A stretch of DNA of 64,000 nt from Candidatus Lambdaproteobacteria bacterium (GTDB lineage Bacteria > SAR324 > JACQKK01), in contig JACQKK010000005.1 in the NCBI GenBank assembly GCA_016204605.1, forward strand, positions 3,802-67,801, given 5' to 3'. A program made the position numbers and the translations under genes. The stretch's first letter is position 1, and each line of letters opens with the position of its first letter. The notes under the pieces are model-generated. The model had not been told where the DNA came from. It worked only from the letters and a program-made list of their open reading frames with translations, and ran no database searches. Below are positions 2,345 to 48,923 of the stretch, in pieces.

Positions 2345-2743
2345 ATGGCGGACGAGAAGGCGTTGCGGGTGCTGATCGCGGAGGACAACCCCAACCTGCG
2401 CAGGGTCATCGTCAACATCGTCAGGAAGCTCGGCTACAGCGACGTGACCGAGGCCGAGGACGGCGAAAAGGCCTGGGACGAGATCCTCAAGGGCGGGATC
2501 GGGCTGCTGCTCACCGACTGGCGCATGCCCGAGCTGAACGGGCTCGAGCTGCTGAAGCGCATCCGCCAGTCGGCGCCGCCGATCTCGACCATCCCCGTGC
2601 TGATGATCACCGCGGCGGACACGAAGAACGAGATCGTGACCGCGGGCAAATTCGGGGTGGATGCCTACGTGGTCAAGCCCTTCAACATCGCCACCATCGG
2701 CGAGAAGATCCAGGAAGCGTTCCGCAAGCGGCCCCCGCGTTGA
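2345..2743 (+). CDS. CheY-like single-domain response regulator
   Basis: MADEKALRVLIAEDNPNLRR...LLLTDWRMPELNG...VLMITA...YVVKPF. The acidic pocket, phospho-acceptor Asp, conserved Thr and Lys are all present. ATG at 2345. Confidence 0.9.
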   Translation: MADEKALRVLIAEDNPNLRRVIVNIVRKLGYSDVTEAEDGEKAWDEILKGGIGLLLTDWRMPELNGLELLKRIRQSAPPISTIPVLMITAADTKNEIVTAGKFGVDAYVVKPFNIATIGEKIQEAFRKRPPR

Positions 2744-3687
2744 ACCAGTCCTCCGCCGACTCCCGCGCGGCATCCACCTGGACCGTCGCCGCCCTGCTGA
2801 AGTGGTGCGAAGGCTACTTCCGCGAGAAGGGTCTGCCCTCGCCCCGCCTCGATGGGGAGCTGCTGCTCGCCCACGTGCTGGGGCTGCGTCGCCTGGACCT
2901 CTACCTCCAGTTCGACCGGCCGCTGACGCAGGCGGAGCTGGCGGCGTTCCGGCCGCTGGTGCAGGCGCGGGCGGCCCGCCGGCCCGTGGCCTACCTCACC
3001 GGCGAGGCGGGCTTCTGGGGCCTGACCCTGGCCGTGCGCCCCGGCTGCCTGGTGCCCCGCCCCGACACCGAGACGCTGGTCGAGGCCGCGCTGGGGGCGA
3101 TCGCGGCCCTGCGCGCCGCCATGGCCGTGCCAACGGGCAATCCTGAGGCGCCCCTGACGCTGGTCGAGCTGGGGACGGGCACCGGCGCCATCCCGCTCGC
3201 CCTCTGCGCCGAGACGCGGGGGCTGACCTGCGTCAGCGTCGAGCGCTCGGCCGAGGCGCTGGCCTGCGCCCGCGAGAACCGCGCCCGCCACGCCGCCCTG
3301 CTGGCGCCCCGCAGCAACGATCTCCGCCTGGTGCGCGGCGACCGCCTGGAAGCGCTCCACCCCGCCTTCCGGCCGCACCTGCTGGTCAGCAATCCCCCCT
3401 ACATCCCCAGCGCGGCCATCGCGGGGCTGGAGCCCGAGGTCGCGCAGGCGGAGCCGCGCGCCGCGCTCGATGGCGGCCCGGACGGGCTCGACTTCCACCG
3501 CAATCTGCTCGCCTTCGCGGCGGAACGCCTCGCTCCCGGCGGCCGGGTGCTGTTCGAGATCGGCCACGACCAGGCCGAGGCCGTCCGCGCCCTCGCCGCC
3601 GCGCATCCGACGCTGCGCGAGATCGAACTCCGCCGCGACCTCGCCAAGCGGCCGCGGGTGTTCCATGCGGAGAGGAGGGCGGGGTAG
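2740..3687 (+). CDS. prmC: Peptide chain release factor N5-glutamine methyltransferase
   Basis: HemK/PrmC layout with a SAM-binding loop ELGTGTGAIPL and the catalytic VSNPPYIP motif. In-frame TTG at 2740 overlaps the cheY-like stop (gTTGA). The start is uncertain by a few codons. Confidence 0.85.
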   Translation: MNQSSADSRAASTWTVAALLKWCEGYFREKGLPSPRLDGELLLAHVLGLRRLDLYLQFDRPLTQAELAAFRPLVQARAARRPVAYLTGEAGFWGLTLAVRPGCLVPRPDTETLVEAALGAIAALRAAMAVPTGNPEAPLTLVELGTGTGAIPLALCAETRGLTCVSVERSAEALACARENRARHAALLAPRSNDLRLVRGDRLEALHPAFRPHLLVSNPPYIPSAAIAGLEPEVAQAEPRAALDGGPDGLDFHRNLLAFAAERLAPGGRVLFEIGHDQAEAVRALAAAHPTLREIELRRDLAKRPRVFHAERRAG

Positions 3688-3790
3688 AGAGTGCGATGCG
3701 TTACGCCCCCCGGTGCGCCCCAATTAGGAACGATTTCAATAGAATTTGTAGTAGTGATCCTATGAATCTGTTCTCGGTACCTGCGACGAG

Positions 3791-9968: not shown

Positions 9969-11486
9969 TCATTCCCCGGTCTCGGGATTGACCGTCAGGC
10001 GCAAGTTGGCGCGGATGCGGCGGGACAGGATATCGATGCCGACGTTCATCACGGCCGTGACCAGCAGCAGGAACATCATGCGGTCGAGCCGGAGCTGGGA
10101 GAGGGCGTTGTCGATGAAGAAGCCGAGGGTGTGGATGCCCAGCATGCCGAGGATCGCCGTCTCCCGCAGGATCACCTCCCAGCGGTAGAACAGGAAGGCC
10201 AGGAACTGGCCGTACACGCGGGGCAGCACCTCGAAGCCGTAGAGGTTCAGCCCGCGCGGGCTATCGGGCCTGCGCGGGATGGCGTCGGCGTGGCGGCCCG
10301 TCAGGTGGCCGATGATGGCGCCGTTGTGGAGCGCCAGCGCCACGATCGCCGGCAGCATCGAAGGTCCCCAGGCCTGCAGGAAGGTGAAGGTGAGGATGTA
10401 CTCGGGCGTGGAACGGGCGATCACGAGGAACACGTGGCCGGCCGTACGCCCCACCGGACCGAAGAAGTGTCGCGAAATCAACGGAAAGAAGACCAGCGTG
10501 AGCAGCCCCGTGCCGACCAGCGCCACCTGGGAGAGCAGCAGCGTGGCGACCATGCCGGGCAGCGCCTGATCCCTGAGCAGCATCCCCATCCAGCGGCCGA
10601 GCGCGCCGAGCGTCCCGGCGTCCAGCAGTGCGCCCGCGCGGAGGGGCGCGGGGACGATATCGGCGGTGAGGAACCGCAGCGCATTCTCCCAGGCGATCGG
10701 CATGCCGGGCGGCAGGGCGAGGATCGCCAGCACGAACAGGAGCGGCACCAGCCGCGGGCGTACCCACAGGCGGAGGGTCGAGATCAAGAGGAAGAACAGG
10801 TACAGCAGCGCCGACACCTCGGAGTACTGCCCCTGCTGGAACGCCGTCTGCAGGTGGAAGCCCAGGGTCGGCAGGCCGACGAACCCCAGTACGGCGCTCG
10901 ACCGCATCCCGCACTCCAGGCGGTAGAGGGCGTACGTCTTCATATGCTGCCAGACGGGCGGCAGCCTGGCGTAGAAGAAGCCCGACAGGATGCCGCTCCC
11001 CGCCGGCAGCGCCTTGAGCGGCGTGGCATCGGCCTCCTCCAGGATTTCCGCGAACACCTTGGCGCAGATCGCCGAGTAGGGGATGGCGATGGCCAGCACG
11101 CCGGTCAGCGGGCTCAGCCCGAACATCTGCAGGAAGATCAGCGCCCAGAACAGCTCATGGATGGCCCGCAGGAACGCGCACCCCCAGCGCACCGCGCCCA
11201 CGTGGAACACGAGCGCCAGGCAGAACCCCGCCAGCACGGCGATGCCCACCCCCGTGGCGGCGAAGGCGACGGTGTGCAGCAGCGCCGAGGCCAGCTGCTC
11301 GGTGGCGAAGAAATCCGGGGTGAGCGCGCCCCGCATCATCCGCCCGAGCTCGAACCAGGGGTCCCGGGTCGTGATCTCGATGTCGGAGAGAAGCAGGCAG
11401 GCCGCTGCCAGCCCGAGGAACCACAGGCTGGTCCTGAACGCCGCGGAGCGCGGCATCGTCTGCGGGGGCGTCGCGGGCGCGGGCAC
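9969..11486 (-). CDS. phnE: Phosphonate/phosphite ABC transporter permease (duplicated PhnE-type)
   Basis: 505-aa polytopic protein with two permease halves. It is the last gene of a phnD-phnC-phnE arrangement. Confidence 0.8.
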   Translation of the reverse strand: MPAPATPPQTMPRSAAFRTSLWFLGLAAACLLLSDIEITTRDPWFELGRMMRGALTPDFFATEQLASALLHTVAFAATGVGIAVLAGFCLALVFHVGAVRWGCAFLRAIHELFWALIFLQMFGLSPLTGVLAIAIPYSAICAKVFAEILEEADATPLKALPAGSGILSGFFYARLPPVWQHMKTYALYRLECGMRSSAVLGFVGLPTLGFHLQTAFQQGQYSEVSALLYLFFLLISTLRLWVRPRLVPLLFVLAILALPPGMPIAWENALRFLTADIVPAPLRAGALLDAGTLGALGRWMGMLLRDQALPGMVATLLLSQVALVGTGLLTLVFFPLISRHFFGPVGRTAGHVFLVIARSTPEYILTFTFLQAWGPSMLPAIVALALHNGAIIGHLTGRHADAIPRRPDSPRGLNLYGFEVLPRVYGQFLAFLFYRWEVILRETAILGMLGIHTLGFFIDNALSQLRLDRMMFLLLVTAVMNVGIDILSRRIRANLRLTVNPETGE

Positions 11487-11488
11487 GG

Positions 11489-12145
11489 TCAGGACCGGTA
11501 CAGGGAATCGAGATCGCCGGGCTGGAGGCCGGCCGTCGGGCGATCGAGCACGATCCTGCCGCCCTGCAGGCCGATCACGCGGTCGGTGAACGCGAGGGCC
11601 AGCGCCACGTCGTGCATCGCCAGCACCACGGTACGGAAATCCTGGTTGATCGCCGCCAGTACCTCGCGCGACTGCAGCTCGTCCACCGACGAGACCGGCT
11701 CGTCGCCCAGCAGCACCTCGCCCCCCTGGTGCAGCGCCCGCGCCACGGCCGTACGCTGCTGCTGCCCGCCGGAAAGCTCGCCCACGGGCGTGAACAGCTT
11801 CTCCTCCAGCGCCACCCGTCGCAGCACCGCGCGCACCGGCTCCACCTCGCGCGGCAGCGGCCAGGCCAGGTTGAGCAGGTTGTAGGCGGCGGCGTGGCGG
11901 TTCAGCCGCCCGATGTAGACGTTGTGGAACACCGAGAGCGGCTTGACCAGCGCGTAGTCCTGCGGCACCAGCGCGCAGCGGGCGGTCTGCTGCCGATAGA
12001 GCAGGTTGAGCAGGGTGGACTTGCCCGCCCCGCTCTTGCCCACGAGCGCCACGCGCTCGCCCGCCTCGATGGCGAGCGACACCTCTGCGAGCGCGCGGCG
12101 GCCGTTGTAGCTGACGTTGGCCGCCTGCAACTGGAAGACGCGCAT
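11489..12145 (-). CDS. phnC: Phosphonate ABC transporter ATP-binding protein
   Basis: MRVFQLQAANVSYNGRRAL... with Walker A GKSGAGKST, signature [15 protein letters not shown] and Walker B LLGDEPVSSVD. The start codon abuts the phnD stop. Confidence 0.85.
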   Translation of the reverse strand: MRVFQLQAANVSYNGRRALAEVSLAIEAGERVALVGKSGAGKSTLLNLLYRQQTARCALVPQDYALVKPLSVFHNVYIGRLNRHAAAYNLLNLAWPLPREVEPVRAVLRRVALEEKLFTPVGELSGGQQQRTAVARALHQGGEVLLGDEPVSSVDELQSREVLAAINQDFRTVVLAMHDVALALAFTDRVIGLQGGRIVLDRPTAGLQPGDLDSLYRS

Positions 12146-13002
12146 CAGTCGATCACGCCGATGGCCTGCCCGGTCTTGAGGATCGGGTCGTAGTCGCTGT
12201 TCTTCGCCGGGACGAACTTCGAGCGGGCGAAGACCTTCATCAGGAGGGGGTCGTCGATCGAGAGCAGCGCCTGCCTGACCCGTTCCTTGAACCCGCCGCC
12301 CCAGGTGCTGTCGACGTCGCCGCGGATCACCCAGTGGTAGTCCGGGTAAGCGGGCGTCTGCCAGATCACCTTCACCCGGCGGGTATCGATCCGCCCTTTG
12401 GCCAGCTCGGTGTTCCAGACCTCGTAGTTCAAGGCGCCCACCTCGTAGGCGCCCGACTGCACCAGGGCGATGGTCTTCGAGTGGTCCCCGCTGAAGCCCA
12501 CGCGCCTGAACACGTCGTCGGGGGCCTTGCCGAAGGCCTCGCGGATGAAGAACTCGGGCATCAGCCGGCCGGAGGTGGAGCCCTTGGAACCGAACGTGAA
12601 CGTGCGGCCGGCGATGGCCGTGGGGAACGCCTGGCTCCGCTCCAGCCCCGTGCCGGTATTGGCGATGAAGTACGAGACGAACGCCTGATCCTCGAATCCC
12701 TGCACGATCGCCTCGGAACCGGGCACCCGCAGGCGCGCCTGCACGCCCGTCAGCCCGCCGTACCAGGCCATCTGGATCTGGTTGTTGCGGAAGCCCGTCA
12801 CCGAGGCCTCGTAGGACTTGACGGGCAGGTACTTGAACTCCACCCCCAACTGCCGCGTGAGGTACCCCGCGATCTTGCCGAAGCGCTCCATCAGCCGCGA
12901 TTCGTCCTGATCGGGAATGGCGGAAATGTAGAACGTTTGCGCCGCCGCAGGCCACGCCAGCAGTGCGAGCAGCGGCGAGAGCACCCCGATTCGCTTGAGC
13001 AT
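12145..13002 (-). CDS. phnD: Phosphate/phosphite/phosphonate ABC transporter substrate-binding protein
   Basis: Signal peptide MLKRIGVLSPLLALLAWPAAAQ, then YISAIPDQDESRLMERF...MAWYGGLTGV...FGSKGSTSGRLMP, as in PhnD-type binding proteins. Confidence 0.85.
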   Translation of the reverse strand: MLKRIGVLSPLLALLAWPAAAQTFYISAIPDQDESRLMERFGKIAGYLTRQLGVEFKYLPVKSYEASVTGFRNNQIQMAWYGGLTGVQARLRVPGSEAIVQGFEDQAFVSYFIANTGTGLERSQAFPTAIAGRTFTFGSKGSTSGRLMPEFFIREAFGKAPDDVFRRVGFSGDHSKTIALVQSGAYEVGALNYEVWNTELAKGRIDTRRVKVIWQTPAYPDYHWVIRGDVDSTWGGGFKERVRQALLSIDDPLLMKVFARSKFVPAKNSDYDPILKTGQAIGVID

Positions 13003-24062: not shown

Positions 24063-24364
24063 CGGCGCCCCGTTCCCCGCCGCGCGGGAATCCGCGCCAT
24101 CGACCAGCGGCCCCGGGGATCCAGCGCGCCGGTCTGCTCCCTGCGGCAGCGGAAAGAGCACCGGCTGCGGGGGGGGGGTGGGGTGGCGCGGACGGTCGAA
24201 GTCCTGTCCTCGTCCCGCCCGACTGTGGTAGAGAGGAAGCGAGGCGCGCCCGCGGGTCGGGGCGGCGTGATCCGGAACTTGGCGGCGAAGCGTTTCGGGC
24301 GCGATTCCGGTCGGGGTCGTCGAGGCCCGTGCCTCATCGTCGGACACACCGAGGGGGACGGCGG

Positions 24365-25264
24365 ATGGACTACGTTCGCTATATCGACAAGACCCGCGAG
24401 TACTACCGTGGGCTGGGCTATACGCGCTCCTACCAATGGGCACACTACGAGGGCGCGCCGTTCACGCCGCTGCGCAAACCCTTGGCGGAATGTCGGGTGG
24501 CGCTGGTTTCCACCGCGGGCTTCACGCTCGTGCCGGAGGGCGGATTCAGTGCGGAGGAGCTGGCGCGCGTCAAGACCGGCGGCTCGAACGTGGGTTCCTA
24601 CGCGCTGGAGGTGTGGCCCATCCCCAGCGAGATCGCAGAAGACCGGATCCTATACGTGGTGGCGAATCACGACCGCTCCCAGAGCGACATGTCGGACGCC
24701 AACACGTTCTTTCCGGTGACCCGGCTGCGGGAGTTCCGGGACGAGGGCGTGCTGGGCAGCCTCGCCACGAACTTCTATCGCCTCAAGGAGAATTACAGCC
24801 AGCGCAAGACGGTGGAGGTGGACGCGCCCGAGGTGTTGCGCCTGCTAAAGGCAGACCGGGTGGATGCGGCGCTGTTGAGTCCCGTCTGACCGGTCTGCCA
24901 CCAGACCGTGAGTCTGGTCGCCCGGCACCTGGAAGCCAACGGCATCGCGACGGTCACCTTCAGCAATGCCCGCGACATCACCGCGAGTGCCTGCAATCCC
25001 CGCACCGTGTTCACCGATTATCCCCTCGGCAATGCCTGCGGCCGGCCCCACCAGCGCGAAAACCAGCGCGAGGTGCTCCGGACGGGCTTCCGCCAGCTCG
25101 AAAGCGCGACGGAGCCCGGCACCATCGTCGACACGCCCTTCCGGTGGTCGGCCGACGAGGAGTGGAAACGGCTGGTCTTCACGAATGAGCGCCCCTGGCT
25201 CAGCGAACAAGCGGAAGCGGAACGCCGCGCGATCCTGGAACGGAACCGGTCGGCGCGCCCATGA
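24365..25264 (+). CDS. GrdB/PrdB-family (glycine/sarcosine/betaine/D-proline reductase B-like) selenoprotein. In-frame TGA at 24887-24889 read as Sec
   Basis: Two same-frame ORF pieces (..24889 and 24908..25264) join into ...LLKADRVDAALLSPV-U-PVC-HQTVSLVARHLEANGIATVTFSN.... The U-x-x-C sits where this family carries its Sec/Cys redox centre. The N-terminal half has family-like VALVSTAGF and FFPVTRLREFRDEGVLGSLA. A hairpin follows the UGA. Confidence 0.8.
24891..24918 (+). promoter_or_regulatory. Candidate bacterial SECIS hairpin(s) for the UGA at 24887
   Basis: There are two mutually exclusive 7-bp stems. One is ACCAGAC-CGUGA-GUCUGGU (24900-24918, with GU in the loop, starting 11 nt after the UGA). 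The other is CGGUCUG-CCAC-CAGACCG (24891-24908). Confidence 0.5.
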
Positions 25265-25277
25265 CGAGAGCCCTGCC

Positions 25278-25508
25278 GTGAAACACGTGATCGTCTACAC
25301 CACCCCGTTCTGAGCGCCCTGCGCGGCCCTGAAGACGTATCTGGCCGACAAAGGCGTGTCCTTTGAGGAACGGGACCCGATGGTCGATCCGGCAGCCGAG
25401 GCCGAACTGGCCGCACTCGGCCTCTATTCCACGCCGGTGACGCTGGTCGACGGCGAAGCCATCTTGGGGTTCGATCCGGATGCACTGGATCGGGTGTTGA
25501 CCCCGTAG
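25278..25508 (+). CDS. Glutaredoxin-like (thioredoxin-fold) selenoprotein. In-frame TGA at 25311-25313 read as Sec
   Basis: (V/M)KHVIVYTTPF-U-APC-AALKTYLADKGVSFEERDPMVDPAAEAELAALGLYSTPVTLVDGEAILGFDPDALDRVL. This is the classic small-Grx layout, with the first Cys of CxxC replaced by TGA. GTG start 13 nt after the GrdB-like stop, with GAGAG 8 nt upstream. A weak stem CGGCC/GGCCG (25324-25347) follows the UGA. Confidence 0.75.
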
Positions 25509-25516
25509 CCCCGCAC

Positions 25517-25562
25517 CCACCCCGAGGCGGCCCGCCTGCTCGAGCGCGCCAGTGCGGCCACC
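25517..25562 (+). repeat. Direct repeat / decayed copy of the 3' end of the dehydrogenase gene (compare 23912-23957)
   Basis: ccaccccgaggcggcccgcCtgCtcgagcgcgccaGTgCggccacc against ccaccccgaggcggcccgcGtgGtcgagcgcgccaTCgAggccacc. About 41 of 46 nt are identical by hand count. Both read HPEAAR(V/L)(V/L)ERA..AT in frame. Confidence 0.7.
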
Positions 25563-25612
25563 GTCAGGAGGTCCGGGCGCCGGGATTACGCGCCCTCTGC
25601 CGGGAGCGCCCC

Positions 25613-26839
25613 TCAGAACAGCTCCCGCACGAAATGCCGGGCGCGGCGCACGACGCCCGGCCGGGGGCCGTGCGTCGGGGTGCGCTCGGCGACCATGTGG
25701 TAGGCCTGCAATACGTTGTGGCCAAAGGCGTAGGCGCCGCTCCACAAGTACAGCCAGAACGCCCGGTACACCTGCTCGCCCCAACGCCGCAGGATCATCT
25801 CCCGGTTGGCCTGGAAGCGCTCCGCCCAGTGGCGCATGGTCAGCATGTAGTTGTGGTTGTCCTGCACCACCTGGCGCGGCATGAACCCGTGGAACAGCAT
25901 CTCCTGGATCACGTCCTGCAGACACATGTAGCTGTGAGTGCCGGGGTAGATGTAATGGCGGATATATCGGCTCACGGCATACTTTTCCAGGTCCGCCGAG
26001 GCGTCCATGTAGATCAGGCCGCTCGGCTTCAGAAGCTCCCACGCCCGCTGGAAGAACTTGCGATAGTAAGGGATGTGCTCGATCACGCCCAGGATGACGA
26101 TCGCGTCGTATGGCTTCTCCGCCTTGTGGACGAGAAAGTCCTCCTGCAGCACTTCGCCGGGGTACTTCTTCTCCGTGAGCAGCCGCTGAATATGGGCGTA
26201 GGAGTCGTTGGCGAGCGTCAGGCTGGTGACGTGGACATCGCGGGGCCCGCAGTAGCGGGTCACGCCGCCCCAGCCGGCGCCGATATCCAGCACACGCATG
26301 CCGGGCTTCAGTTGCGCCCAGTCGTACATGGTCTCCAGCTTGCGCTCACAGGCCTTTTCCAGCGACTCATCATCCGTCTGGAAGAATCCGTGGGAATAGA
26401 GATGGTAATCCGTATCGATGAAGCAGAGGAAGAAATCGTCGCCGAACTCGTAGTGGTGCTGGATCGCCTTCTTGTTGACCTTGGTGGGCGCCTGGATCAG
26501 TTGCTGGGCCCAGAAGTGAAGTTTAGGCGTCAACCCGCCGAGCGCATGCTTCAGGCGGGTACGTATATCGAAAAACGTCAGCATATCGCCTTCAATGTCG
26601 AACTCGCCGTTCACGAAGGAAGTCCCCAGCGTAAACTCGTCGGGGCCCTTGGCGAGGACGCGGTCCGTATGAAGGGTCACGCGGAACTTCGGGGCGCCGC
26701 TCCCGAAGCGTAGCGCCTTGCCATTGGCCAGGACGACTTCACACGGAACGTCGAAATCATTCAGCATGCGCTCGACGCGTTCGGTCACCTTCGTGCGGGA
26801 AGCAGAGGGTTCCTGTTCCGCAGTGGCGGATGAAAGCAT
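25613..26839 (-). CDS. cfa: Cyclopropane-fatty-acyl-phospholipid synthase family SAM-dependent methyltransferase
   Basis: HHYEFGDDFFLCFIDTDYHLYSHGFF...VLDIGAGWGGVTRY...YDAIVILGVIEHI...IYPGTHSYMCLQDV...HWAERFQAN matches the CFA-synthase/mycolic-acid-methyltransferase family. ATG at 26839. Confidence 0.85.
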   Translation of the reverse strand: MLSSATAEQEPSASRTKVTERVERMLNDFDVPCEVVLANGKALRFGSGAPKFRVTLHTDRVLAKGPDEFTLGTSFVNGEFDIEGDMLTFFDIRTRLKHALGGLTPKLHFWAQQLIQAPTKVNKKAIQHHYEFGDDFFLCFIDTDYHLYSHGFFQTDDESLEKACERKLETMYDWAQLKPGMRVLDIGAGWGGVTRYCGPRDVHVTSLTLANDSYAHIQRLLTEKKYPGEVLQEDFLVHKAEKPYDAIVILGVIEHIPYYRKFFQRAWELLKPSGLIYMDASADLEKYAVSRYIRHYIYPGTHSYMCLQDVIQEMLFHGFMPRQVVQDNHNYMLTMRHWAERFQANREMILRRWGEQVYRAFWLYLWSGAYAFGHNVLQAYHMVAERTPTHGPRPGVVRRARHFVRELF

Positions 26840-27295
26840 GGGTGCTCTCGTGATTGCTGGTGAAGGTGTGGCGGATCGGCCGTCCGATTCGCAATGCCCG
26901 ATCCCTCTAGCGGTGCTCTGTCCATCATGGACACGGCATACAGTCACGGCCCTTGCGCGTCCAAGCGCTCCGCGCCCGTGACGTCGCAAGCGGCGGGCTG
27001 ATCGCGCGCACCTCGGCGTGATGGTTCCCCCCTGCGGCGGTTTTTGCACAGTGGAGCGCCGGATGTAAAGAGGCCCCTCCCGGCGATGCCCCCGGCAACC
27101 GACCGGCCAGCCCGAATCCGGCGCACCGGCGGGGCCTTGCAGGCTGCCCGCCGCCACGCCGCGATCGCGGCCATACGCGAGTTACCCAACGAGATCGGCG
27201 ACTTCCTCACCAATGAAAAGCCGAGCGGCCTGCTTCGAGAACGCCTACGTCTCCACAATCGCTACAAGCCGAGTCGACGTGAAGTGGGCTGCGGC

Positions 27296-34268: not shown

Positions 34269-34727
34269 TCAGAGCCGGATTCCGCTGAGCAGATCCAAGA
34301 AGAACCGCTCGTCGAGAATCAGCACCCGGCTCAGGCGGAAGCGGATCTTCTGCAGGATCATTTCCTTCGGCCATTCGGCAGGATACGCCAGCCCGCCCTC
34401 GATCTCCCGGTAGCGCGTGCGGCTGAGGCGGATGCGCCGGGGATCGGGCGGCAGGGCCAGCGCCAGCGTCGATCCCGGTCGCTTTGCCAGATAAGCCAGG
34501 CTCTTCACGGAGAGCGCCGCGCGGGTTTCGCTGAGGAAGCCCTGCACATCGAGCAGCAGGCCGCGTTCGCTCATGCTGGGGTTCTCGAAGTGCCAGATTA
34601 TGGACGAATCGGCCCTGGGCCGCAACTGGAAGCCCTCCAGGCCGATCACCTGGTCGAACGGCTCCCGGAACAGACCCACGTCCACCTCACGGACGGTGTA
34701 GATATCCAACCGGTTTCTCGCATCCAT
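34269..34727 (-). CDS. Hypothetical protein (152 aa)
   Basis: MDARNRLDIYTVREVDVGLFREPFDQVIGLEGFQLRPR...EWPKEMILQKIRFRLSRVLILDERFFLDLLSGIRL. The composition looks coding, but I recognise no family. Confidence 0.45.
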   Translation of the reverse strand: MDARNRLDIYTVREVDVGLFREPFDQVIGLEGFQLRPRADSSIIWHFENPSMSERGLLLDVQGFLSETRAALSVKSLAYLAKRPGSTLALALPPDPRRIRLSRTRYREIEGGLAYPAEWPKEMILQKIRFRLSRVLILDERFFLDLLSGIRL

Positions 34728-35121
34728 GCGTGCTCGAGCGAAGCCGCCGCCGCCGGAGGAACCCGCAACGTCGGGCGCCCCCGGGCGCGCACGCGACCGG
34801 GAGATCGCGCGCCGTCCGCCGGGCGAGGATCGGCCGCGTACGGCCTCGAAGGTTGTAAGCCCTCGGCCGGCGCTTCGCAAGCGGCGACGCTCCGCCGTGC
34901 GTGCACCCCACCCCCCTTCGCGAGGAGGGGCGCGGGCAGCCAGGTTGCGGGCCGACTGCGCGTTCGGCTCACCGACGCGGTGCCGAGCTTCCACCCGGCC
35001 TCGCCACTGCGTTGCGGCCCGTGCGCTCGGTCGTGGACGGCCGCGAGCCGATCGTGCATACTGACGCTACCGGCCGCCCGCGGGCGGCGGCCGGCCCACA
35101 CCGCCACCAGGATCGCCACGG

Positions 35122-48542: not shown

Positions 48543-48824
48543 CTATCGGTGGTAGTCCACGATTTCTACGTCGTACGCCCCGTCGTCGCGCCACTCGAAG
48601 CAGATGCGCCACTGGTCGTTGATGCGGATGGACCATTGTCCTTCCCGGTCGCCGTGGAGCTTCTCCAACCGGTTGCCCGGCGGAATATTCAAGTCCGATA
48701 CCCTGCCGGCCAGGTGCATCTGGTAGAGCTTGCGCGCGGCCGGCGCGGCGATGGCCCGGAACCGCCGCACCGGCTCCCCCGCGGCCAGCGTCTCCGTATC
48801 CTTGTCCGCAAAGCTCCAGATCAT
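48543..48824 (-). CDS. higB: HigB-type toxin (RelE/ParE superfamily, killer protein)
   Basis: MIWSFADKDTETLAAGEPVRRFRAIAAPAARKLYQMHLAGRVSDLNIPPGNRLEKLHGDREGQWSIRINDQWRICFEW. Confidence 0.88.
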   Translation of the reverse strand: MIWSFADKDTETLAAGEPVRRFRAIAAPAARKLYQMHLAGRVSDLNIPPGNRLEKLHGDREGQWSIRINDQWRICFEWRDDGAYDVEIVDYHR

Positions 48825-48843
48825 GGTGCGCCCGGTTTTCCCC

Positions 48844-48872
48844 ACGCTATGACGCCGGACGTCACGTGTCAA
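48844..48872 (-). promoter_or_regulatory. Putative higBA promoter with an operator palindrome in the spacer
   Basis: Gene orientation reads TTGACA cgTGACGTCCGGCGTCA TAGCGT. The spacer is 17 nt. The 15-nt palindrome TGACG-nnnnn-CGTCA (48850-48864) fills it. Confidence 0.5.
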
Positions 48873-48923
48873 TGGGCCGATCGGTGCAACGTCTGCGTCC
48901 GCGGCGTCGGGCGAACTGCCGCC

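Follow-up and report, generated by a model that had tools for sequence, protein, structure and literature searches.

Does the short reading frame behind a PrdB/GrdB-like selenoprotein gene in a 64 kb stretch of DNA from a SAR324-like bacterium (Candidatus Lambdaproteobacteria; the complete stretch, with a GC content of 70%, is called the window below) encode a second selenoprotein, and do the two proteins work together? The frame specifies a small protein that resembles glutaredoxin (Grx) and related redoxins, and an in-frame TGA takes the place of the codon for its first active-site cysteine. We put the probability at roughly 0.62 that the two genes constitute a dedicated redox pair, that is, one operon with two selenoproteins in which the selenocysteine (Sec) containing Grx recycles the selenium-sulfur (Se-S) bond of the PrdB-like enzyme. 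This reading is favoured because the operon is tight and conserved, because the Sec or Cys state of both genes is matched, because the small protein is homologous to the selenoprotein cGrx1, and because PrdB and GrdA are known to need an electron donor (PMC13188914). A dedicated electron-donor/reductase pair had been proposed earlier in a sequence-only reading of the window, and the conserved and matched pairing described below lends support to it, the function itself being a prediction.

The positions that had been given before for the Grx-like gene and its TGA all proved correct when the sequence was read again (Table 1). The frame starts with GTG at 25278, continues through 11 codons (VKHVIVYTTPF) to the TGA at 25311-25313, and then reads APCAALKTYLADKG...GFDPDALDRVLTP up to the TAG at 25506-25508; the entire stretch between TGA and TAG is APCAALKTYLADKGVSFEERDPMVDPAAEAELAALGLYSTPVTLVDGEAILGFDPDALDRVLTP. 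The GC content at third codon positions (GC3) is 0.85 in the PrdB-like gene and 0.79 in the Grx-like gene, and the 11 codons that precede the TGA look coding as well, because their GC3 is 0.91. In the 5' direction the frame stays open to 24966 (open reading frame (ORF) 24966..25313), but this extension shares DNA with the PrdB-like gene, which is read in a different frame, and its protein sequence is not conserved. Gene callers reported a tail of 42 residues only at the Grx-like locus (P0122; also in a second assembly, L070) or nothing at all, as in four SAR324 metagenome-assembled genomes (MAGs; L052-55), where the Sec Grx-like gene is wholly unannotated. Thus, the gene is normally missed, as had been anticipated from the fact that the piece of 11 codons is too short to be called. 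The problem amounts to a systematic annotation gap: in every Sec-form locus examined the Grx gene was missed or truncated and the reductase-like gene was split.

Table 1. Location of the two genes and of the associated sequence elements in the window
Feature	Position	Strand	Remarks
PrdB/GrdB-like selenoprotein gene	24365..25264	+	299 codons + stop TGA 25262-25264; redox motif U175-P-V-C178
In-frame TGA, Sec codon (U175) of the PrdB-like gene (predicted)	24887..24889	+	aligned to Cys in 26 Cys-form homologues, TGA in all Sec-clade loci
SECIS-type hairpin of the PrdB-like gene	24900..24918	+	ACCAGAC-CGUGA-GUCUGGU; 7-bp stem, 13 nt after the U of UGA
Intergenic spacer	25265..25277	+	13 nt; Shine-Dalgarno-like GAGAG at 25266-25270
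Grx/NrdH/YruB-like redoxin gene	25278..25508	+	76 codons + TAG; active site U12-A-P-C15
In-frame TGA, Sec codon (U12) of the Grx-like gene (predicted)	25311..25313	+	aligned to Cys of homologues
Candidate SECIS of the Grx-like gene	25314..25357	+	outer helix 25314-18/25353-57; inner stem CGGCC 25324-28/GGCCG 25343-47; apical GA/UC 25331-32/25340-41

A comparison of related genes provides the evidence for recoding of the two TGAs. The TGA of the Grx-like gene occupies the same column in eight lineages of the partner clade (Sec-form Grx genes that accompany a PrdB-like gene) and in 12 sequences of a second Sec-Grx clade with the motif QPG-U-xFC; in the 24 Cys-form partners this column holds Cys (TGC/TGT), as it does in the homologues from the PDB. 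A TGA that is flanked by conserved coding sequence on both sides and recurs in eight distinct lineages is more than chance. The start codon is aligned with ATG, GTG or TTG in six of the eight lineages. Moreover, the amino acids encoded by the 11 codons 5' of the TGA are kept, whereas the codons change synonymously (e.g. K2 in 16/28, V6 in 18/21 and P10 in 20/28 pairs), which implies that selection acts on the full-length Grx-like protein. The sequence around the TGA of the PrdB-like gene reads ..DAALLSPV-U-PVCHQTVSLVARHLE.. (U-PVCHQT). Just after this UGA the rate of synonymous differences falls to 0.07-0.12 versus an average of 0.41 for the gene (rank 5 among 294 windows). In the Sec-form Grx genes the rate is 0.19-0.24 for codons 17-25 versus ~0.43, and the codons for L22, A23, G26 and F29 are nucleotide-invariant in the eight lineages. 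The Cys-form genes served as control and show no synonymous dip after the Cys codon, in either gene. From these patterns we infer that both in-frame TGAs are recoded and that Sec is inserted at both sites. A scan of the window for further genes with an in-frame TGA gave none that was convincing.

The obvious objection is that the TGA at 25311 is a true stop, leaving a pseudogene or a mere tail of 42-50 residues, or that it stems from an error in sequencing or assembly. Gene callers indeed treat it as a stop and the window carries no Sec machinery. Nevertheless, we hold this to be extremely improbable. The TGA coincides with the Cys column in eight lineages and the 11 upstream codons are under purifying selection, whereas a tail that lacks strand 1 and the active site would be unable to adopt a thioredoxin fold. 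In addition, both TGAs are kept in the L070 assembly, which shows 99.96% identity over 2.5 kb, although it possibly derives from the same sample as the window. A reassigned genetic code is excluded, since the operon also contains a TGA that serves as a normal stop (25262-25264).

Potential selenocysteine insertion sequences (SECIS) follow both codons. The hairpin of the PrdB-like gene was recovered by RNAalifold as a 7-bp stem with two compensatory pairs relative to a distant Syntrophaceae Sec homologue (L030), and its nucleotides are invariant in the close Sec lineages. However, in the Cys-form PrdB-like genes (L004-L027) the 45 nt downstream of the Cys codon also fold better than shuffles (mean z -1.73, n=23). 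With Cys forms that fold equally well, folding z-scores are not diagnostic for this gene and the freezing of synonymous sites was used instead. The fold in the Cys forms may represent a fossil SECIS, or may simply result from the peptide together with GC-rich codon use; the His-Gln and Leu-Val codons of these genes (CACCAG / CTGGTG) are self-complementary. For the Grx gene, the stem CGGCC 25324-25328 / GGCCG 25343-25347 that had been spotted by eye is contained in the minimum free energy (MFE) fold, and MFE folds revealed a hairpin in each of the eight Sec-form Grx genes, starting 11-14 nt after the UGA. The 45 nt that follow the TGA fold better than shuffles in 8/8 Sec forms, with a mean z of -1.64 versus -0.33 for the Cys forms (Mann-Whitney p 0.0012, for sequences that are not phylogenetically independent). 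A SECIS in the Grx gene is plausible on the basis of these predicted folds. Two further signals in this region were set aside. A perfect 10-bp inverted repeat, GGCAGACCGG / CCGGTCTGCC, flanks the UGA of the PrdB-like gene (24849-24900) and is probably due to chance, because its 5' arm is not conserved in the related loci L002 or L003. C4 RNA, the sole match of a permissive Rfam scan of 24800-25520, was likewise attributed to chance.

What kind of protein would the readthrough of the second TGA yield? In profile searches with U replaced by C, the 76-residue product is identified as a thioredoxin-fold redoxin of the NrdH/YruB/cGrx1 type. It matches the Pfam family Glutaredoxin (PF00462) with 42.9 bits versus a gathering threshold of 22.9, residues 4-62 covering profile positions 1-60 of 60. 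The best match in the PDB is 7C10 (E 8e-13, residues 2-74), followed by 3ZIJ (a thioredoxin-like protein of Bacillus) and by several NrdH redoxins including 1R7H. U12-A-P-C15 is aligned with CPHC of 7C10 and CPPC of 3ZIJ, so that U12 corresponds to the first Cys of the CxxC motif, and STPV, aligned with AVPV and STPT of the PDB matches, represents the cis-Pro loop. These matches bear out the earlier assignment of a glutaredoxin/NrdH-like fold in which the first active-site Cys is encoded as TGA. Nevertheless, the protein falls outside every curated NCBIfam subfamily, because all scores remain under the curated cut-offs: YruB (TIGR02196) 64.5 versus 88.55, NrdH (TIGR02194) 43.8 versus 85.75 and Uxx_star 37.3 versus 66. 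The Grx3 models give just 20-27 bits versus cut-offs of 90-129. The classical glutathione-dependent Grx proteins of the Grx1/Grx3 type have a CPYC-type site and a GG-x-DD glutathione-binding motif. When the sequence of the Grx-like protein was read by eye, these classical glutathione-binding motifs were not found in it; it reads UAPC and ..DGEAILGFDPD..

The larger protein matches the Pfam family GRDB (PF07355) with 27.3 bits versus a gathering threshold of 22, and the match stops three residues before U175. The NCBIfam model for PrdB gives 97.8 bits across nearly its whole length (equivalog cut-off 300) and that for GrdB 35.7 (cut-off 602). Residues 73-254 can be placed on positions 248-429 of the GrdB-family model TIGR01918, with U175 at ~350, so that the U-x-x-C motif coincides with the Sec position of the family. 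The 2792 relatives that were detected fall into two groups: fragments of 174 residues versus full-length proteins of 293-311 residues that carry CPVCHQT. The former are Sec forms cut at the TGA, have 63-82% identity and include some named SAR324. A sequence search of the PDB yielded no relative at E up to 1. In a confident AlphaFold model of a Cys-form homologue (predicted local distance difference test (pLDDT) 87, predicted template-modelling score (pTM) 0.88), CPVC lies where a strand (E159-163) passes into a helix (H167-182), as it does in CxxC centres that are redox-active; a Foldseek comparison of this model with the PDB produced no significant neighbour (best E 0.048, template-modelling score (TM) 0.34).

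Is the arrangement of the two genes conserved? A homologue search that started from the Grx-like protein returned four truncated proteins only, and the Sec-form loci were reached from truncated Grx and truncated PrdB-like matches via the contigs that encode them. A scan for PrdB-like genes with one genome per species gave 27 loci; the back-translated patterns contained Cys, so it collected Cys forms only. The three metagenome contigs found via truncated Grx matches (L001-L003) have the arrangement of the window with both TGAs, except that in L001 only the end of the PrdB-like gene precedes the Sec Grx. A Sec Grx-like gene lies directly 3' of a Sec PrdB-like gene in the four SAR324 MAGs mentioned above, in L056-58, L059 and L061-64. 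In fact, every partner-clade locus examined in which DNA downstream of the Sec PrdB-like gene was available has a Sec Grx-like neighbour. The description of the genes as translationally linked holds strictly for L002 and L003, where the spacer is absent and the GTG of the Grx gene overlaps the upstream stop TGA (GTGA), and loosely for the window, with its gap of 13 nt and a GAGAG of its own.

The same order is found for the Cys forms. A Cys-form PrdB-like gene is followed by a Cys-form Grx-like gene (TPLCAPC) in 24/24 proteobacterial loci, which belong to the Burkholderiales (e.g. Bordetella bronchiseptica and Lacisediminimonas) and to several Alphaproteobacteria; in L068 and L069 the gap is 4 nt and the Pfam call of the source itself is Glutaredoxin. 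Among the Sec-clade loci and the 24 Cys-form loci no mixed Sec/Cys pair was seen. A check that had been suggested beforehand, on conservation of the pair and of Cys versus Sec at both positions, therefore shows that the pair is kept and that the states match at both sites. A neighbour-joining tree separates the Grx-like proteins into three clades, namely the Sec partners, the Cys partners and the third clade with the other Sec-Grx proteins. The identity between Sec and Cys clade is about 45-50% for both proteins, and this near-equality is as expected for co-inheritance. Beyond the pair, the Sec-clade loci compared have no conserved neighbour in common, so the conserved unit is the pair itself.

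These data bear on the idea that the small protein is a general-purpose redoxin, merely co-located or co-transcribed with the PrdB-like gene. Small redoxins are promiscuous and the sister Sec-Grx clade occurs in unrelated contexts, which would agree with such a role. However, a gap of 0-13 nt or a GTGA overlap persists between clades whose proteins, the large and the small one alike, have no more than ~48% identity, and the adjacency spans at least the Burkholderiales, the Alphaproteobacteria and SAR324-like lineages. We therefore consider a merely general role unlikely.

Several other observations were made on the related loci. A MAG of the Syntrophaceae (L030:3349-5008) carries two PrdB-like paralogues in tandem, of which the first type contains Sec (PV-U-PKCHQ) and the other Cys (PVCPVCHQ); there is no Grx-like gene nearby. 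The second Sec-Grx clade comprises metagenome loci L031-L045 (e.g. L036:3001-3219) and has a clean 7-bp SECIS hairpin with covariation. In L034, L036 and L044 the QPG-U-xFC Grx follows ORFs that by eye resemble a CsoR-type repressor and a MerT/HMA-like membrane protein, and in L032 a glutathione S-transferase (GST) gene adjoins it. Directly 5' of the Sec PrdB-like gene in L061 (2975-3808) and in L062-L064 lies a methyltransferase gene with an N-terminal motif that, by eye, is like that of sarcosine/dimethylglycine methyltransferases. A conserved ORF of 76 residues (..CWK.L.DG...EWRKELARL..) is present upstream in two lineages (L052:3623-3853 and L061:2391-2621).

How could a dedicated redox pair operate? 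U12 would be inserted at the UGA at 25311-25313, aided by the hairpin 13-36 nt downstream. The PrdB-like enzyme would reduce its substrate via U175-x-x-C178 at the N-terminus of a helix and would thereby acquire an intramolecular Se-S bond. The selenolate of the Grx (U12) would then attack this bond to give a transient Se-Se or Se-S mixed intermediate, to be resolved by C15, and the oxidised Grx would be re-reduced by the cell through thioredoxin reductase, like the NrdH-type redoxins, or by glutathione. Co-transcription of the genes, the direction in which electrons flow and the final source of reducing power are likewise inferred. A more far-reaching version, possible yet doubtful, is that the pair forms a self-contained two-selenoprotein reductase, in which the PrdB fold would act without a pyruvoyl subunit, the Grx-fold selenoprotein would replace GrdA/thioredoxin, and the all-Sec/all-Cys pattern would reflect an obligatory chalcogen exchange with a Se-Se intermediate. 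If true, this would provide a function and a physiological reductant for the abundant 'PrdB' selenoproteins of marine aerobes.

The combination of a GrdB-family gene with a small selenoprotein gene in one operon, with two TGAs, is also the layout of grdA-grdB (PMC13188914), and the small protein might accordingly be seen as a carrier. As GrdB passes a carboxymethyl group to the Sec of GrdA, the PrdB-like enzyme would pass a substrate-derived group to U12, after which the Cys of the small protein itself would resolve the adduct and thioredoxin would recycle it. The strict conservation of the pair and its matched Sec/Cys state are equally compatible with such a carrier. However, with its thioredoxin fold and UxxC site the small protein is a redoxin related to cGrx1 and NrdH and is not GrdA (CxxU, PF04723), there is no GrdC-like acceptor nearby, and the larger protein scores best against PrdB, D-proline reductase being a system without protein A. 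We therefore have little confidence in a carrier function.

The neighbourhood of the Cys pairs suggests yet another role, namely in the trafficking of sulfur or selenium (metabolism of persulfides, perselenides or organosulfur acids) instead of a reductive cleavage of a C-N bond of the PrdB type, with the Grx acting, jointly with the larger protein, on small-molecule or protein persulfides. Many Burkholderiales Cys loci are flanked by genes for a four-domain rhodanese, an HxH cupin-like protein, a family III CoA-transferase, acyl-CoA dehydrogenases, IclR and TctC, and a GST gene is located directly upstream in L056-58. These neighbours are missing from the window and from the other Sec-clade loci, the association is confined to one order, and the cupin-like protein has no Pfam match, for which reasons we consider trafficking unlikely, though somewhat less so than a carrier. 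The rhodanese and the cupin-like protein (~205 residues) are encoded divergently upstream of the Cys pair in L004, L006, L008-L011, L013, L019, L020 and L068, and a molybdopterin oxidoreductase is also often encoded near the Burkholderiales pairs. This neighbourhood hints at organosulfur-acid catabolism.

A number of findings weigh against a dedicated redox pair of two selenoproteins. The Sec pairs all fall within a single clade and the Cys pairs within a second one; the matched state may therefore count as one evolutionary event and not as repeated co-conversion. There is no adjacent Grx gene in a PrdB-like subfamily of 311-312 residues (L065 of the Bradyrhizobium type and L067), nor in the distant Desulfobacterales loci L028 and L029, so that the PrdB fold does not have a dedicated Grx in all cases. 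Conversely, the second Sec-Grx clade is never found beside a PrdB-like gene. PrdA, GrdE, GrdA and GrdC were found neither near the pair in the window nor in any Sec-clade locus, and for lack of these partners the analogy with the chemistry of proline or glycine reductase is limited. With respect to the recoding signal, RNAalifold detected no common central stem in the eight Sec forms of the Grx gene, because the register of the stem shifts between sub-lineages; a 70-nt segment of the window with the Grx hairpin folds no better than shuffles (z -0.01); and no SECIS family was matched in Rfam, neither in a scan of the window at gathering thresholds nor in the permissive scan of 24800-25520. For these reasons the SECIS of the Grx gene is plausible and not demonstrated. 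Finally, SelA, SelB, SelD and tRNA-Sec are not encoded in the 64 kb window, where a six-frame motif search for SelD, SelA and SelB gave no match either, and the competence of the host to decode Sec is thus presumed.

The pair in the window has a gene for an isocitrate/isopropylmalate-type dehydrogenase (Iso_dh) and a convergent gene for a CMAS-type methyltransferase (25613-27181, minus strand) as neighbours. A link of the latter with the gene upstream of the pair in L061-64 was considered and rejected as coincidental, the identity being 29% over 119 residues only. The GC content of positions 24200-27200 is 0.59-0.68 versus 0.70-0.77 in the flanks, and the pair may form a small acquired block together with the convergent methyltransferase gene. 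The IspH protein encoded in the window is closest to proteins named SAR324 cluster or Deltaproteobacteria (about 70-72%; the top match, an unnamed one, reaches 77%), which makes an uncultured SAR324-like bacterium the probable host. Elsewhere in the window, on the minus strand, we noted a thiamine pyrophosphate (TPP) riboswitch (1813-1922; Rfam RF00059, 70 bits) 5' of an operon for an ABC transporter, an ORF encoding a HigB-like toxin domain (48543-48923; PF05015) that adjoins an MgtE transporter gene, and three large ORFs (9969-12152, 2665-3723 and 34269-35066) with coding-like GC3 and without a Pfam match at E 1e-5.

The relevance of the pair extends beyond the window. Selenoproteins of the 'PrdB' type are abundant in ocean metagenomes, although the organisms that carry them lack the other components of proline reductase. 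The finding that one PrdB-like clade always has its own Grx-fold partner in the matched state implies a minimal two-component system. This system could be reconstituted in vitro, for which the Cys versions of culturable Burkholderiales offer an easy entry. It would also represent a second natural case in which Sec is used in tandem, by an enzyme and its reductant.

The first such case involves cGrx1. Kim et al. (2011) reportedly described a 'tandem use of selenocysteine' for cGrx1 with a selenoprotein MsrA. The cGrx1 of Clostridium (Alkaliphilus) oremlandii OhILAs (7C10/7C12) is natively a U-P-H-C selenoprotein and has been proposed as the direct reductant of the selenoprotein MsrA (PMC7642778). 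It is similar to the protein studied here in its thioredoxin fold of ~80 residues, the position of U-x-x-C, the C-terminal ..VVGFD.. motif and the proposed reduction of a Sec enzyme. It differs in its client (MsrA versus a presumed PrdB/GrdB-like protein), in its active site (U-P-H-C versus U-A-P-C) and in its host (a clostridium versus a SAR324-like bacterium with 70% GC), and the tightly conserved operon is a feature of the present pair. Compared to the redoxins of the NrdH/YruB/BC3987 type, the size and the fold are similar and the motifs of the classical Grx glutathione site are absent here too, whereas the CVQC and WSGFRP motifs and the nrdEF or rubredoxin context are missing and Sec replaces Cys.

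The reductases of amino-acid-fermenting anaerobes provide the second comparison. PrdB of D-proline reductase depends on a dithiol donor for its recycling, and thioredoxin performs this task for GrdA (PMC13188914). The grdA-grdB and prdB-prdC operons of these organisms likewise combine a U-x-x-C selenoprotein of the GrdB family with a smaller redox selenoprotein, with two TGAs. There, however, the partner is GrdA (CxxU) or PrdC, whereas here it is a thioredoxin-fold UxxC protein and PrdA, GrdE and GrdC do not accompany the pair. A review of 2026 lists grdA-grdB, prdB-prdC, frhA-frhD-hdrA, Prx/SelW-like, Prx-like/AhpD-like, SAO and Tso as selenoprotein operons, and the PrdB-like/Grx pair is absent from its operon section (PMC13188914). 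No description of the pair was found in the literature searched, which was limited in extent and provides no proof of novelty.

Both families have been known from the sea for a long time. The selenoprotein families 'Proline reductase PrdB' (UxxC, PF07355) and 'Grx / Grx-like' (UxxC, PF00462) have appeared in catalogues from 2005 onwards, beginning with the surveys of the Sargasso Sea and of Global Ocean Sampling (GOS), in which PrdB, with 42 and 235 genes, respectively, ranked among the most numerous selenoproteins (PMC1088965, PMC2398784). The families and UxxC motifs are those of the pair described here, which is carried by SAR324 MAGs; the surveys list the two families separately and no statement on their adjacency was found in them. 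The Grx-like gene thus joins a known Sec-Grx family, and what is added to the two catalogued families is the conserved operon in which both members contain Sec or both contain Cys.

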